NCBI GenBank assembly: GCA_963713605.1
Contig: CAVQMO010000012.1
Coordinates: forward strand, 96,001-160,000
DNA length: 64,000 bases
Direction: 5' to 3'
Origin: an uncultured Nitrososphaerales archaeon
GTDB lineage: Archaea; Thermoproteota; Nitrososphaeria; Nitrososphaerales; Nitrososphaeraceae
The notes below the pieces were generated by a model that had not been told where the DNA came from, ran no database searches, and saw only the letters and a list, made by a program, of their open reading frames with translations. Both the position numbers and the translations under genes were made by a program. Numbering within the stretch: position 1 is the first letter of the stretch; the number at the start of each line of letters is the position of its first letter. Shown here one piece after another: positions 1 to 45,144 of this stretch.

Positions 1-147
1 TTCGGGTACTTTGACTCCAACAATTGCGTCCCTACAACTTGGGCAAATCTGATAGTAAACGTACATTTGTTTATTGTCCCTGTTCAAGCCTATCGGAAAA
101 TTCCACATTTGAGGGTGAAAACTGGTCTTACAATTTGGACATTCCAT
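1..147 (-). CDS. Zinc-ribbon protein, N-terminal part (runs off the left edge)
   Basis: Hand translation from ATG at 147: MECPNCKTSFHPQMW...YYQICPSCRDAIVGVKVPE, open to position 1, two CPxC motifs. Confidence 0.7.
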   Translation of the reverse strand, partial: MECPNCKTSFHPQMWNFPIGLNRDNKQMYVYYQICPSCRDAIVGVKVPE

Positions 148-288
148 GGAAGTACATATAGCAAATCACATATATAATCCATAAAGCGCACATAATCACA
201 GTTTAGTCAATAACCTGACAGAAGGTAGGCGACCATTATAGAATAGTGCCGGATTTTGCTATCAGTTTGTATTATCGTTATTCAAAAC

Positions 289-452
289 TAAAAGTTTTTC
301 GGTACAATAAAAAGGTAGAACAACCAGGAGGTTGACCAGACATCTGATTGCTTACCTTGTATCCTTTGCGCGACATATTATAAAAAACAGACAATTAGAA
401 AAGGTAGCGCGCGGCCGAGAATTTGTCCAATTGAAAGGAAAGGACTGGCCGC
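289..452 (+). repeat. Non-coding hairpin module A, copy 1
   Basis: 289-327 matches 42119-42157 at 37/39. Stems GGTAC/GTATC (301-305/359-363), AAGGTA/TACCTT (312-317/353-358), GTCC/GGAC (425-428/442-445), GCGGCC/GGCCGC (411-416/447-452). Confidence 0.7.
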
Positions 453-1144
453 CACTACCAAACCATGCCGATTTACGATATGCTCACATTTCATATTATA
501 TTATTATATAATAGGCATTACGGAACTTGGTTATTTGGTATTCCAAATGACATACTGATGGTGGATTGTAAAATTTGAGTGAAAAGAAGGTGATCAATAG
601 ACTACATGTCAGACGCATTGATTGCATACTGCCAGTTGGTTCCTTAAGAGTGATTTAAAGGCCTCAACTACCAGCGACTATTTGCACAACAAAGTGTAAA
701 AGTAGATAGAGAAGGACTGCCTACGTACAAGAATTTAGGAAAGTTGTAGGTGCTCCTTCTCCCTTCTTAGTGACTGCTTGTATTTAATAATACTTGATTA
801 ACTTCGTAAAGTGACAAATTATTGAAAGCACCAACATTAGAGTGATGTTGCAGTACTAATAAAGTATAATTCGAGCAAATAATCGGAAACTGTATCCGAT
901 AAAACATCTCCTTGTCAATGGAATCAATTGACAGTGTAAAAAGAGGACTAAGTATCCTTTCTAGATACTAACGCACACATTGCCCGCAGTTAAAATAATG
1001 AAAATAACTCATAAAAAGACAGACATTATGAAATTGCTTCTTTTAAGTAACCAAAACAACGTAGGCCCTAAGTACGAAGAAGTTTATATTCACAAGCCAA
1101 CATAATAGTGTCCGCAATATGTTGCCACATTCTGTAAATTAGAC

Positions 1145-1675: not shown

Positions 1676-2436
1676 TTCTTGTACACAGATACTTACATCT
1701 GCATTGCTTATCTTCCTTGATGATCTCGCTCAATTGATACCGTTAATCAACTATTTTATACAAGTTATATTTTTTTCAGAAATGGTGGTTTACATATAAA
1801 ACTTTTATAATAATTCATCCAAAAATGCTGATTTTGTATAAACTAGGTTCAAAGTTTTATATTCATGAATTAACCCTATTGAGAGTTGAGGATTCATGCC
1901 TTCTATCGCATCTGCACTCAATTTTAACCCTACCAATCTTTATTATCAGTTTAAATCCACAAATATAAAAGGCTATATTTGAGTTTTCAAACTAATTTCA
2001 CTTTTTTTGGGTAGTCGTCCGCCAATTTAACACCTTAGACCGACTAAGGACTGGCCAGCCAAATCAAATGCATCAGGGGTAGTATTTCGATGCGCCCAGT
2101 TGTAAAGTGTTTTCATTTATACATAATCTTTCAACTTTTCCTTTGCTAGGGTCCACGTTTACTTGGTTTGGGTCCTTGTTTCCGTGCCACCTTTCAGTTT
2201 ATGTTAGTTATTACGTTGATTTCCGACGCCTGTCTTTATATTTTCCAGCATTGAATCCAGTAACTTATAGTCAATTTCCTTCCTCTTTCCTTTAGATACT
2301 ACCGCCTGACGTGACATTTGCCATTTAATGCCGTATAATTAGATATTATGAATAGTCAACATAATGAAACTATGTGATGAAATAAAGGTTAGGTTAGGCA
2401 TGCGTGTAATGAGGGTATCGATATCTACCTGCTGAA

Positions 2437-2610
2437 TGTTCTACTTGTGTGAGAGTAGTCCAGTTACGGAAATTTCATGATAAACTAAAACCCTGTTTAT
2501 AATTTTTTAGGATAGGTAAGGGTTAGTAAGGGTAAATGGATGCGGACAACACAAACGCCCTTACCTATCCTGTGCAGGTATCCATTGAATTTGGTGTCTT
2601 AAAATTAACA
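2437..2610 (+). repeat. 174-bp conserved structured element B, copy 1 (candidate ncRNA or mobile-element end)
   Basis: Aligns ungapped to 42849-43022 with 5 mismatches; perfect 14-bp inverted repeat 2509-2522/2558-2571. Confidence 0.9.
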
Positions 2611-2940
2611 GAACCCATATACTATTGGGATATTTGATTAGTTATTGGCTTAATCATGACATAGCAATATAAGTAAGTGGTTAAGTAACTCTGACCATTG
2701 CCCCTGACCATTTACTGTCGGTTTAGAACCTGATAACTAGAGATTCGCGGCCATAGCGTCGCATTATACTGTGAAAAATTTATAATTTAGACAAGCAAGT
2801 CTAAATCCATCCAGAAGATCATTATGTGAAGTTTGGGATTTGTCCAGCTTCCAATCATCGACTACAACAGCGGTTCGAAATGAGACTATTAGTTGCCGTA
2901 AGGATGGGTGAATCTTGATGAACCTTTTAGACATTAACAT

Positions 2941-3456
2941 TTACTTTATCTTTGATCTCTTGATCTTTTCCTGCAGTAACATAGTCCCCTGTATCAATGT
3001 TTCAGGACGTGGAGGGCAGCCAGGGACATATACATCGACTGGAATGATTCCATCTACACCTGGTAGTACATTATAAGAATCTATGTATAAGCCACCCGTG
3101 ATAGCACACGCACCCATTGCTATAACATATTTAGGCTCAGGCATTTGATCATACACCATCCGTAATCTAGGTGCCATCTTTCTTGTCACAGTTCCCTGTA
3201 CTACTATCAAGTCACATTGTCTAAGTGAGCCAAAAGCTTCAATAATGCCAAATCTTTCAACGTCATATCTTGGACCTGAAGCAGCTCCAAATTCAACACT
3301 GCAACAGGCCGTCTCCAAATGGACTGGCCAGAGGGACCACACTCTACCCCAATTTATAGCGTACCCCAATGGTTTGTCGATAGCCTTCACTAGCACGTCT
3401 CCAAGTCGGCTTACCATGAGATTAAAGTTAGAAGGGTTGAGCAGTTCCGTTTTCAT
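2941..3456 (-). CDS. nuoB: NADH-quinone oxidoreductase subunit B
   Basis: TACCSVE, GTVTRKMAP, MGACAITGG, PVDVYVPGCPPRPE motifs. Confidence 0.95.
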   Translation of the reverse strand: MKTELLNPSNFNLMVSRLGDVLVKAIDKPLGYAINWGRVWSLWPVHLETACCSVEFGAASGPRYDVERFGIIEAFGSLRQCDLIVVQGTVTRKMAPRLRMVYDQMPEPKYVIAMGACAITGGLYIDSYNVLPGVDGIIPVDVYVPGCPPRPETLIQGTMLLQEKIKRSKIK

Positions 3457-4602: not shown

Positions 4603-5309
4603 GCCTCAAAGATTCCTTCGGGAACAACGATTTGACCTTTCAACTTGCAATAACAAAAAGAAAGATAGCACGGTCGTTTCTGCCGCATCGTTTACAGATA
4701 GCCATTTTGATATATTTCCGAGCGTGGAACTAACTAAAAAGGATAGTATATCCTAGCGAATAAATGCATCTCAACCTGAGCATACCTATTGTCATCATAT
4801 TATGGCCGTGAGCACAAGGATTGGGTCTAAGATTGGAGTGAGGCTCGGAGGTATTAGGAACCTTGGAATCCGCGGGTTCGATTACGGTAATATGTGACCA
4901 CTAGTCTTAAATCGTCCTTGTCAGGATTTTGTTATTCTCTAATTAGTAACGCATAGATACTTAACAACTCTGTATGACCTCTAATTATTGGGATGGCTAT
5001 TGACAACGCAACATTACTTCAGGTTAACACTAGCGCCATAGTGGGCATTTTTATCTTCTTAACCTTGCAAGGATTTGGTTCGACTCGATTTAGCCTAATG
5101 CAGACTAGGGCTATGAGTGATCCCATTCGCTTTTTCCGCGATAGCGATACTAATAGGTGAAATCTATTCTTCCTGTCTCGGCAATATTCTATCGGTTCAA
5201 AAACTAAGAGGCAAACGCATCAGATCTTAAATTAGAGCATCGTCTTTTCAGTTATAGGGATAAGGAACAATACACGACGAAGATAGGAAGCCTCTTGCTG
5301 GTTTATTGG

Positions 5310-41239: not shown

Positions 41240-41827
41240 TTACCTTTTCTTGATCCTTGTCCTTCTGCGCCTAGTGCTAGCAATTGCTTTGTTCTTTTTG
41301 CTCATTCTAGATTTAGGTTTGACGATGGTAGTAGTAGCAGAACTCAATTTTCTGAATCTTGTTTTTATTGTAGAAGCTGTTCTTAATTTTTGAACATCAT
41401 TTTCAACCCGCGACACCTGCTTTTGTAGCTGACCAAGTTGGGATTTAATTTGTTTGATTGATTGTAATTGAGACTGTCTTAGCCCCAGTCCCGCTGCAAT
41501 AGTGGACTGTCTTTGTTTCTGTAAAGACTGAATCAAAGTTGTTATTCTATCAATCTGATTTCCATTCTTCTCTACCTGTTTTGATATATGTAATAAGTAT
41601 GTAATTGCTCGTCTTCTCTTCTGCCTCTTTTTGCTAATAAGAGATTTTTCCTGTGATTCTTCTATTTCCTTGTTTTGTTCTTGTAAGTTTTCTTCCTGTA
41701 AAATTTGTTCCTGTGGTATTAGTGCCGGCGTCTCTTCTACGAAATTCTGATTTTCTGCTACTGTAGATGAAGTTAATTCCTCTTCACTTTCTTCAGCCAT
41801 ATGTTCTGACACTATCGTGTTAGTCAT
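41240..41827 (-). CDS. Acidic N-terminus / coiled coil / basic tail hypothetical protein
   Basis: 195 aa; paralog at 51139..51739. Confidence 0.75.
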   Translation of the reverse strand: MTNTIVSEHMAEESEEELTSSTVAENQNFVEETPALIPQEQILQEENLQEQNKEIEESQEKSLISKKRQKRRRAITYLLHISKQVEKNGNQIDRITTLIQSLQKQRQSTIAAGLGLRQSQLQSIKQIKSQLGQLQKQVSRVENDVQKLRTASTIKTRFRKLSSATTTIVKPKSRMSKKNKAIASTRRRRTRIKKR

Positions 41828-42118
41828 AAATATAATTACGATACTTAAATGTGTAGTTATAACATCAATTCATTTCTTCAGTGAATAAGTCACTAGTGAT
41901 ATTTGAACACTTTCAGGACTTTGTTACTCTTAAACTAGTAACAGAGACAAAAAATAGGTCTACCAAACCTACCCTTGATGAACACCTTACGAGCGATGGA
42001 GGTTAGATTCCGCAGGTACTATTTAGACCAGGATTGGGATTGGGGTAGAGACAAGCCCATGGCCGCCTTATCTTTGGATATTGCTTTCAGACGGTATAGA
42101 ATATAATGACCATTCGGG

Positions 42119-42350
42119 TAAAAGTTTTTTGGTACAATAAAAAGGTAGGACAACCAGAAAAAAATCGAACAGGTACCTTTTGCGTACCTGCTGCTGCACA
42201 CTCACAACATAGTATAAAAGTGGATACTATGGAAGGTATGCAAGCAAGCAGTACTAATAAGACTTCTAGTAGGTAGTAGATCGTGGATTGGATGGATGTC
42301 CTTTCAACGACTGTGCTACCTACCCTTGAGAGTATAGTCCAATTAAGGAC
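42119..42350 (+). repeat. Non-coding hairpin module A, copy 2
   Basis: GGTAC/GTACC (42131-35/42184-88), AAAAGGTA/TACCTTTT, CATAGTAT/ATACTATG (42208-15/42224-31), GTAGGTAG/CTACCTAC (42269-76/42316-23), GTCC/GGAC (42337-40/42347-50). Confidence 0.7.
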
Positions 42351-42393
42351 ACTTAAAATGCTTCGATGTTGGTTAAATAGTTTTTAGGATCCT

Positions 42394-42672
42394 TTGCTAT
42401 TGTACGCCGTTTTGCAATGCCAAAACCCACGACATAAACAGCACTTAAAGAGATTCCTCGCGAAATATCCAACGACTGATAAGAATGGAGAGTTTCCAAT
42501 TATAACAGTAAATCCAGTGGATTGGGCTATTGACTTAGAAGATCCAAAGAAGAATACTGTCCAATGCTGTCAAATGTGTAGTATACAAGAAGATATCAAG
42601 AGAGTAACTAGTCCTGGGTGGACAGGTCAACCTGCTAGTTTTAACCCTTACGAATGGAAGATAAATTATTAA
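42394..42672 (+). CDS. Hypothetical Cys/His protein embedded between modules A and B
   Basis: 92 aa, TTG start; CQNPRH and CCQMC motifs. Confidence 0.5.
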   Translation: MLLYAVLQCQNPRHKQHLKRFLAKYPTTDKNGEFPIITVNPVDWAIDLEDPKKNTVQCCQMCSIQEDIKRVTSPGWTGQPASFNPYEWKINY

Positions 42673-42848
42673 TAATAATACGGAGTTGGCCGGCGGTATA
42701 AAGTGCAACCTAAAATACCAACCATTTCCGATGCCAGGAATGCTTAATCCTATATTACTTGGGTCAATTTTGCTAATAATAGTTTAATTATTGAGTGTGT
42801 AAGAATAGTTAACTCGGCAAGCAGGCATAGACGACCTGCCTGCCGAAT

Positions 42849-43022
42849 TGTTCTACTTGTATGAGAGTAGTCCAGTTACGGACATTTCATGATAAATTAA
42901 AACCTTGTTTATAATTTTTTAGGATAGGTAAGGGTTAGTAAGGGTAAATGGATGCGGACAACACAAACGCCCTTACCTATCCTGTGCAGGTGTCCATTGA
43001 ATTTGGTGTCTTAAAATTAACA
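42849..43022 (+). repeat. 174-bp conserved structured element B, copy 2
   Basis: 169/174 identical to 2437-2610; 14-bp inverted repeat 42921-42934/42970-42983. Confidence 0.9.
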
Positions 43023-43148
43023 AAACCTTTTAAAAATTTAGTAGGTAAAATTTTGAAAATAAAAAAGTGAAAGGTCGTTGCTCCACCTCCAACGTGACCG
43101 CCACTGCCACGGTAACAAGAATCGTCTTCAACCATTAACCAGTTTGAT

Positions 43149-43818
43149 TTAAATGAGAAGACCTATAATCCCTTGTAAGTCGCCGACATTTCCTATTGAT
43201 CCCCAATTTACTATGCCTCCACAACCAGTAGGTTCTTCCAATGCCTTAAGTGCACCAATAATCAATGGAAGTGGTAGACTGGCCAGAAATGATCCACCAC
43301 CAGCCAAAAGATGCCATTGCGTATACATTCAACTGCGCGCTCTCCTTCTGTAGTGAGAGTATTGTCCGGATTAACTAGAACATCGCATGATGATACCAAG
43401 GCTGCTTGTAAGTCGTTTCATGTCTTAATCCAGTCGATACCTTCTCCTTGCGACGTAGGTGATTGAGTAGAGGACTCTGCTGGGAATGGTTTGTCAATTA
43501 AACCTCCTCCTCTATCAATGGAACCTCCGGTCTGACTGGATTGCGAAGGTTGAGTCGGCGTCGATCCTCCTGTCTTTGAAGAGGGTGGTTGGGTATCAGG
43601 TGATTTTACTGGGTCACAAGTAAAATCATCATAGTACCCCCGAACAAACTCATCTGTATAACCTTCGAGTTGCCCTACCGTTTTGGATTCAGCCAATCCA
43701 GAAGAAGCCTCGTCACAACCCCTATCACGACCTGTGTCATATTGAGAACTCATGCATAAACTTGAAGAGTACCGATTAACTGTTGTGAAATCAGTGTGCT
43801 ACTAACTGCCATAGTCAT
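43149..43818 (-). pseudogene. Secreted Cys-containing protein with two frameshifts and an in-frame TGA (43418-43420)
   Basis: YDTGRDRGCDEA...GIDWIKT*NDLQAALVSSCDVLVNPDNTLTTEGERAVECIRNG. Confidence 0.7.
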
Positions 43819-44886: not shown

Positions 44887-45144
44887 TTACTTCACAGTAA
44901 GACCGATCTCTGGAAATGTTTGATCTGCTGCTAATGATACTGCATTCTCGTCGCCTTGAATCTGTGAAGCAATGTTCTGACATCCGACGTTGAGAGGTAG
45001 TTCACCATTTCCACAGGCGTTTGCCTGAGATAATGCTTGGTTCTTGTGGTATTTGGTTGCAAAAGCGCTGTCAGTTGTTATTGCTGTTGCACCTACTAAC
45101 GCTGCTGCAAGTACCGCCACAATTGCGATATATTTGAGGTTCAT
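44887..45144 (-). CDS. Small secreted protein (NQxxxQxNxCGNG family)
   Basis: Signal peptide ending SAFA; NQALSQANACGNGELPLNVGCQN. Confidence 0.8.
   Translation of the reverse strand: MNLKYIAIVAVLAAALVGATAITTDSAFATKYHKNQALSQANACGNGELPLNVGCQNIASQIQGDENAVSLAADQTFPEIGLTVK

Follow-up and report, generated by a model that had tools for sequence, protein, structure and literature searches.

A duplicated 174-nt non-coding stretch in a Nitrososphaerales genome is a slice of a genus-restricted family of reshuffled stem-loop modules

Introduction

REP sequences and REPINs have a GTAG-type foot and are built as an inverted doublet around a variable spacer, attC sites carry boxes of the consensus RYYYAAC and GTTRRRY, and dif sites consist of inverted arms around a spacer of 6-8 bp. 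MITEs have fixed ends with terminal inverted repeats, next to a target-site duplication. Arrays of imperfect hairpins with conserved ends, variable centres and shuffled order, in which a short ORF may lie between two hairpins, are described for integron attC sites and CALINs (10.1101/2022.02.06.479319). TIGR arrays are described as tandem stem-loops with variable loops and linkers between them, each stem-loop being defined by two box C - 8-12 nt - box D spacers (PMC12045711, 10.64898/2026.09.09.750476). The Thaumarchaeota, in turn, harbor cryptic integrated elements of 2.6-98 kb with defined ends and short att sites (PMC6563490).

Here, we analysed a stretch of 64,000 nucleotides (the window; contig CAVQMO010000012.1, positions 96,001 to 160,000 of the forward strand) from the genome of an uncultured Nitrososphaerales archaeon, referred to as G000 (4.09 Mb, 87% complete), which named relatives assign to the Nitrososphaeraceae. 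The original prediction, made from the letters of the window, pointed to a 174-nt non-coding element present twice and read it as a pseudoknotted RNA of the plus strand. The repeat was confirmed, not as a single element, however, but as part of a family of stem-loop modules reshuffled through one genus of soil ammonia-oxidising archaea, and these modules often neighbor a small gene that belongs to no known family and is frequently broken.

Results

The two window copies

The two copies, 2437-2610 and 42849-43022, align without gaps and differ at the five positions originally listed (2449, 2471, 2485, 2493, and 2580). Neither of them is overlapped by an ORF of at least 80 aa. With five mismatches the duplication is real, but the genome holds seven matches to the 174-mer, four of them near full length and at least three partial, and not just two. 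The block common to both copies is also wider than initially noted (2425-2615 and 42836-43027; 95.3% over 192 nt by blastn), and copy 2 has up to ~265 nt in common with other copies. Copy 1 has lost hairpin 1, the first module of the chain described below, and its box palindrome is broken by 2471A; because copy 1 is without hairpin 1, the 174-nt stretch corresponds to the middle of the chain only. The mis-assembly check was run for copy 2 and ruled out this explanation, as contigs from DNA runs span both junctions, the left one by 42611-42866 and 42661-42863, from two runs, and the right one by a single contig, 42837-43271.

Duplication as such is ordinary in the host genome: 43% of the window is repeated elsewhere in it, and 53 of 108 duplicate pairs of 150-400 nt with at least 93% identity are non-coding. 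Several other repeats were noticed along the way. A segment of ~145 nt at window 2782-2943, just downstream of a nuoB-like gene (2941-3456) that has three further nuoB-like copies, has ~14 relatives across the genome at 71-77% identity, and a gene for a small secreted-looking protein at window 44887-45144 has ~30 paralogues. The stretches G000:C2:88349-93951 and C13:9774-15373 are near-identical, with a part also at C12:387669, by either a recent duplication or redundant assembly. A separate four-copy family of non-coding hairpins with ~23-bp arms and a 6-nt loop sits at G000:C3:276958, C10:192138, C12:330914, and C15:135256.

Table 1. Features of the window, in window coordinates.
Feature	Position	Strand	Description
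Sister stem-loop array	224..830		arms at 224, 314; hairpins 403-459, 709-761; promoter-like box 515-533
Upstream module	2337..2377		common to many metagenomic homologues
Copy 1, shared block	2425..2615		remnant 3' arm of hairpin 1, box, AT tract, hairpin 2, start of AT block
Box, copy 1	2458..2471	-	GTCC-N6-GGAC, last base changed
Hairpin 2, copy 1	2509..2571		14-bp arms, 35-nt loop purine-rich on plus
Downstream module	2623..2676		shared with array at G000:C5:138838-138896
dif-like site, another copy	4916..4952	+	2.5 kb downstream of copy 1
dif-like site	41888..41945	+	GTTACT-N8-AGTAAC, conserved left flank; 904 nt upstream of copy 2
Spacer and sister-hairpin arm	42048..42157		inside array at G000:C10:135912-136020, missing from the window's own array
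Second, diverged hairpin and box	42268..42355		directly upstream of ORF
Cys/His ORF	42394..42672	+	92 codons; genus-specific family, probably zinc-binding
Hairpin 1	42811..42849	-	16-pair stem on minus, T-containing tail
Copy 2, fuller chain	42811..43083		hairpin 1, box, AT tract, hairpin 2, AT block
Box, copy 2	42870..42883	-	palindrome intact
Hairpin 2, copy 2	42921..42983		
AT block	43015..43083	+	BRE/TATA-like motif; precedes Cys/His ORF in other loci

A chain of separable modules

Matches to the 174-mer were found in 4 of 61 related genomes, all of the same genus, and a search with the box pattern gave 20 metagenomic loci and no viral contig. Own-genome, genus and metagenomic sequences together provided 28 anchored loci, ~21 after rough clustering on their flanks. 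One of them, L008, is a single row in the homologue alignments and in the strand and identity tests; its source, G013, is an unpublished genome that is also counted in the genus tallies for the 174-mer, the ORF and the dif-like site, and that contributes one ORF copy to the dN/dS set. The loci share a conserved chain of ~270 nt composed of hairpin 1, a box with the palindrome GTCC-N6-GGAC, an AT tract, hairpin 2, and an AT block, and the order hairpin 1, box, hairpin 2, AT block, ORF is fixed among the modules. What had been taken for a single 174-nt unit is in fact two modules, each found without the other: hairpin 2 also occurs without the box and is absent or cut in 9 of the 28 loci, two locus types having arisen by deletion between similar AT tracts. 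In one locus type, three diverged hairpin-2 modules fit within 1.4 kb.

Conservation follows the modules, with a mean identity over 21 pairs of 0.96 for the arms, 0.92 for the box region, 0.74 for the AT tract, 0.66 downstream, and 0.61 for the loop. Hairpin 2 keeps a stem of 13-14 bp across homologues with a conserved foot, GRTAGG/CCTAYC, and a variable loop. The box, on the minus strand, occupies the slot of the promoter-like box of the family, a position that suggests its function. The AT block may act as a promoter, judging from its BRE/TATA-like motif against the archaeal promoter consensus, and a TATA-like motif also lies on the plus strand ahead of hairpin 2.

Viral contigs gave no match to the box, sister-hairpin, dif-like or hairpin-2 patterns or to the Cys/His protein described below, nor did the plasmid and phage collections. 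Searches of the literature gave no account of these repeats; the supplements of PMC6563490 could list the dif-like site.

The proposed fold

The perfect 14-bp stem is present in both copies (hairpin 2 in Table 1), and perfect inverted repeats of at least 13 bp with a spacer of up to 45 nt number only 22 in the 4.1-Mb genome, two of them being the window copies. The whole 174-mer folds no better than shuffles (z -1.53 on plus, -1.47 on minus). In an alignment of 13 rows, one of which (L018) is wrongly aligned at hairpin 2, pairing reaches 89% in hairpin 2 and 100% in the box stem, almost by invariance; no compensatory covariation was found in either, and RNAalifold retains only these two stems. 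The proposed ATAAAC/GTTTAT stem did not hold, its pair at 2485 being disrupted in 10 of the 13 rows, and the whole proposed structure shows two-sided changes at one pair vs 1.6 in shuffles.

As for the pseudoknot, the 9-bp pairing between the loop and the downstream segment exists, but across 13 homologues the helix is only 52% paired, and a helix of this length is reached in 15-23% of shuffles (p 0.15-0.23). On the plus strand, cognate loop and downstream segments failed to outrank non-cognate ones in all nine representative modules, and the duplexes between them were better than shuffles in none of the nine on plus and in one on minus. The more limited proposal, a new pseudoknot RNA, is not upheld. 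The element is nevertheless structured, non-coding and uncharacterised, and it has no Rfam family, since neither copy (E up to 5) nor any of six homologous loci (E up to 1) matched Rfam. A conserved leader peptide starting at an ATG in the loop was considered and dropped by eye, as the frame differs between subfamilies.

Arrays of sister stem-loops

Related stem-loops, with arms GGTAG(G)ACGACC / GGTCGYCCTAYC and variable loops of 14-38 nt, form arrays at window 224-830, at G000:C10:135700-136350 and C5:136560-136950, and at loci in six other species. The sister-hairpin pattern matches the own genome 22 times, counting both strands, vs 2 in a shuffled genome, and the exact pattern is found in 7 of 14 genus genomes and in 0 of 224 other genomes of the family. 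Sister units alternate with an AT-preceded, promoter-like box that has 10 copies in the genome, and they differ in order and presence by locus, such that the window is without one unit of the C10 array, the spacer of which turns up again at 42048-42155. The 174-nt element is tied to this family by two slot swaps: a sister hairpin takes the place of hairpin 2 after the box at G000:C3:329740-329990, and the promoter-like box of the family takes the place of the element's box before hairpin 1 at G000:C4:90433. The profiles of the two boxes are only weakly similar, the best match being in register with negative log-odds and p up to 0.04 in 7 of 11 cases. Of the 11 element copies, five have a sister hairpin within 5 kb vs 0.7 expected, one of the five being the slot swap itself.

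In all five orthologous cross-species pairs the loops are 0.90-1.0 identical, and in four of these pairs one flank is 0.53-0.75 identical. A generic hairpin scan found 65 vs 33 in shuffled sequence, a weak excess, GATAGG ranked only 43rd of 4032 hexamers for inverted pairs, and a first cluster scan did not pick up the arrays. The best duplexes of the loops with 2146 mRNA start regions were no better than those with internal windows or shuffled loops, and no long exact mRNA targets of the loops were found. For window 224-830 and G000:C12:95700-96000, an array with a promoter-like box and no fewer than five stem-loops was noted, next to two small zinc-ribbon ORFs of divergent orientation, one of them ending at the start of the window (1-150, minus strand).

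Strand polarity

The original prediction favored the plus strand on account of its G-U changes. Hairpin 1, upstream, points the other way, with 19 alignment cells of G-U type on minus only vs 1 on plus, equivalent to ~6 distinct changes vs 1, and 4 mismatched on both strands. In copy 2, hairpin 1 forms 16 pairs on minus, and a terminator scan calls the minus strand. The mismatches of hairpin 2 itself are mixed (two A-C and three G-T types), and a minus-strand A tract follows hairpin 2 in the window, which speaks against reading it as a minus-strand RNA.

For the sister hairpins the polarity is more regular. Among 18 distinct hairpins, oriented blindly by the purine content of the loop and not independent where related, the T-richer tail falls on the strand with the pyrimidine-rich loop in every one of the 16 untied cases (54% for control windows, p 5e-5), and wobbles favor the same strand 19 to 4, or 10 to 3 when counted by hairpin (p 0.09). 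The pyrimidine-loop strand of the 174-nt element is minus. This strand bias could be mutational (G-to-A on plus) instead of selected.

In 6 of 20 flank clusters the 9-nt loop of hairpin 1 is inverted to the exact reverse complement, the arms being perfected in most of them, and therefore the loop sequence is not read in a fixed orientation. Such an inversion is the pattern expected of template switching, which is described to homogenise arms and to invert spacers (PMC8604942). For the loop of hairpin 2, an inversion was also considered, but is not claimed here.

A small Cys/His protein gene

The ORF next to copy 2 belongs to a family of proteins of 85-90 aa in which Cys, His, Trp and a CCxxC motif are conserved. 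The ORF sits on the upstream side of the chain in 8 of the 28 anchored loci and on its downstream side in 3. Matches to the ORF were obtained in 13 of 14 genus genomes, as many as 22 in a single genome and mostly truncated or with stops, and outside the genus a weak match was found in 1 of 224 other genomes. The median dN/dS was 0.20 over 149 pairs from 28 copies, five of which have internal stops. Most ORF copies have neither a hairpin-1 nor a hairpin-2 module alongside, so the link between the ORF and the modules is frequent and not obligate.

Among 50% representatives we found 68 relatives, the longest of up to 160 aa, and 19 candidates examined for longer or fused forms gave none, a weak negative. 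Nothing significant was found for the protein in Pfam, PHROGs, NCBIfam, PDB sequences or the ESM Atlas. For its predicted model (pLDDT 82.6), Foldseek gave no match at E 0.001, and the best structural Z was 3.6 (rmsd 3.1, 56 aligned), which indicates neither a new nor a shared fold. Two further observations were made around this gene: a gene for a basic coiled-coil protein at window 41240-41827 has six paralogues and a relative near the Cys/His ORF in locus L034, and the contig L040:1-2510, probably through an artefact of assembly, consists of a single large inverted duplication with its centre within the Cys/His ORF.

A dif-like site and recombinase genes

A motif of ~60 nt ending in GTTACT-N8-AGTAAC, which resembles a dif site, has 33 copies in the genome at E < 0.05. 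Its arms occur with the exact N8 spacing eight times and with N6 four times, vs 0-2 times for other spacers, and the site was found in 10 of 11 genus genomes tested and in 0 of 90 others. It forms the left edge of several duplicated segments, and contigs have loose ends at the window site 41888..41945. With all non-coding DNA as the null, a comparison that still includes clustering in plastic regions, 3 of 11 element copies (p 0.024) and 6 of 22 sister hairpins (p 0.003) have the site within 3 kb; the Cys/His ORF showed no enrichment (1 of 17 within 3 kb, p 0.63). In locus L039, the dif-like site sits where the Cys/His ORF breaks off.

The own genome has eight tyrosine-recombinase matches, 26 loci with tyrosine-recombinase (integrase) pieces and 13 with PolB pieces, and, at 87% completeness, no Y1 (IS200/IS605), Y2 (IS91) or IS110 transposase and no reverse transcriptase. 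Intact tyrosine recombinases number three (G000:C3:93276, C2:77331, and C10:850690). Integrase and PolB loci are not nearer to the element, the ORF and the sister hairpins than to randomly chosen non-coding positions. A frameshifted gene for a family B DNA polymerase lies directly downstream of one element copy (G000:C2:70168-71875); an association with PolB was considered from this copy and rejected, as there is no general proximity to PolB or integrase.

Expression data

In a metatranscriptome and in a run guessed to be RNA, unstranded contigs of depth 2 cover 42821-43071, which is a hint of transcription at most, as they may be DNA. One RNA-library contig runs from the element into 43660, which fits DNA as well as read-through. 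The two RNA-type runs gave no cover over the ORF or the flanks, an absence that proves nothing because the runs were chosen for containing the stretch. A contig from an RNA library joins 43071 to ~43656, suggesting a strain without this 585-nt piece (window 43071-43660).

Discussion

By the tests applied, the 174-nt element does not belong to any Rfam family, nor to the MITEs, REPINs, attC sites or TIGR arrays. The ends of pairwise homology vary by tens to more than 100 bases per side, in contrast to the fixed ends of MITEs, and no target-site duplication is seen at the ends of the block shared by the window copies. In layout it resembles REPs, REPINs and BIMEs, which are also lineage-specific, intergenic inverted pairs, dispersed and clustered, with a GTAG-like foot and a variable middle; in fact, GRTAG/CTAYC is found in hairpins 1 and 2 and in the sisters. 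However, the units described here alternate with a promoter-like box, have ragged ends, are linked to a Cys/His gene, and come without a RAYT (Y1 HUH), which is missing from the own genome and present in 1 of 14 genus genomes (incomplete), there with a TnpB-like ORF and without the modules. For a Y2 HUH transposase (IS91/Helitron), the own genome gave no match, and those in 2 of 14 genus genomes are on short contigs that lack the modules.

The arrays recall those described for attC sites and CALINs in their hairpins, shuffled order and occasional ORF, but most units here carry no ORF. No attC boxes were found in 2400-2640 or 42790-43090, and four of the eight recombinase matches, scanned for an integron integrase, reached at most 33 bits vs a cut-off of 265. 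With the TIGR arrays, as described in the sources cited above, they share the tandem layout, and the sister hairpins close with CCA...TG, but many loops are too short for two spacers; a single box C/box D match with a 9-nt spacer was found per copy, outside hairpin 2, and, as for TIGR Tas, the sole Nop locus is on another contig and there is no IS110. The cryptic elements of PMC6563490 share with our genome the host group, tyrosine recombinases, PolB, and small genes without a signature; here, by contrast, only shuffled modules of less than a kilobase are found, and the words 'hairpin' and 'MITE' are absent from the main text of that work. Lastly, the neighboring site is like the Xer/dif sites (for a review, see PMC8371274) in having inverted arms and a short spacer and in bordering duplicated segments, but this candidate site appears in ~33 dispersed chromosomal copies, vs one for dif, and lies outside the 174 nt.

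Modular structure, shuffled order, genus restriction, strand polarity and a link with a small-protein gene characterise the family. Our preferred reading, held tentatively and at somewhat less than even confidence, is that the 174 nt are two neighboring modules of a genus-specific, mobile, modular cassette family encoding minus-strand short RNAs behind a shared box. The stem-loops would act as single strands, read here from the minus strand, most likely as short non-coding transcripts laid out as an AT-rich promoter, the box, a short leader, the stem-loop and a U-rich tail. The box would be a shared operator, with the Cys/His gene transcribed the opposite way. Units would be gained, lost and reordered by recombination between common arms and AT tracts, and whole patches may spread via a duplication process pervading the genome, possibly starting at the dif-like site. 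The window copies, above all copy 1, look like decaying relics.

The main rival, a less probable explanation, is that the hairpins and boxes are DNA-level sites of a decayed integrative or rolling-circle element that are not made into RNA, namely single-stranded recombination substrates, nick or origin hairpins, or iteron-like protein sites. A folded end or site of a mobile element was already the alternative offered by the original prediction, and this part is kept among the readings. The inverted loops with perfected arms, the ragged ends with diverged units head to tail, and the genus-restricted dif-like site near element copies and sister hairpins and at the left edges of duplicated segments are all consistent with DNA sites, as are the 26 loci with tyrosine-recombinase pieces, and the polarity fits a displaced DNA strand equally well. 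Against this stand the lack of Y1, Y2, and IS110 transposases and of reverse transcriptase in a genome 87% complete, the missing proximity to integrase and PolB, and the lack of matches among viral contigs, plasmids and phages; moreover, a T-rich tail on one strand is easier explained by transcription termination.

It is unlikely that the stem-loops have no function at all, their symmetry being kept by template switching and their carriage by neutral segmental duplication. The large duplicated share of the window (43%), the 53 similar non-coding pairs, the loss or truncation of hairpin 2 in 9 of 28 loci, and the known effects of template switching on arms and spacers (PMC8604942) would suit such a history, which nevertheless leaves unexplained the foot motif common to different stems, the regular alternation with a conserved box, the polarity of the T tails, and cross-species loop identity of 0.90-1.0 beside diverged flanks.

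We consider very improbable a plus-strand pseudoknotted RNA of 174 nt (switch or ribozyme), for although the 9-bp pairing is kept, with G-U changes, in four own-genome copies, a second subfamily has an 8-bp pairing between loop and downstream segment (p 0.06-0.12) and a TATA-like motif precedes hairpin 2 on plus, the helix is about half paired and without covariation, none of nine modules exceeds shuffles on that strand, the modules separate freely, and the polarity indicates minus.

Returning to the preferred family of mobile cassettes, its parts could, in a bolder version that we regard as improbable, form an undescribed transposase-free mobile system. It would have arrayed stem-loop RNAs (or ssDNA hairpins) whose variable loops are guide-like, a small zinc protein of its own that belongs to no known family, and a dispersed dif-like site serving tyrosine recombinases as the point from which they copy the adjoining DNA. 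Nitrososphaerales genomes have expanded mainly through gene duplication (PMC7603488), in a work whose main text does not contain 'transpos' or 'intergenic' and in which we found no molecular mechanism given for duplication. If true, such a system would supply a mechanism for this duplication-driven genome expansion, and, if transcribed, the units would represent a first family of small RNAs arranged in arrays in these archaea. The genome carries three non-coding repeat families restricted to the genus, together with a high-copy orphan gene, and these are testable candidates for the mechanism of duplication.
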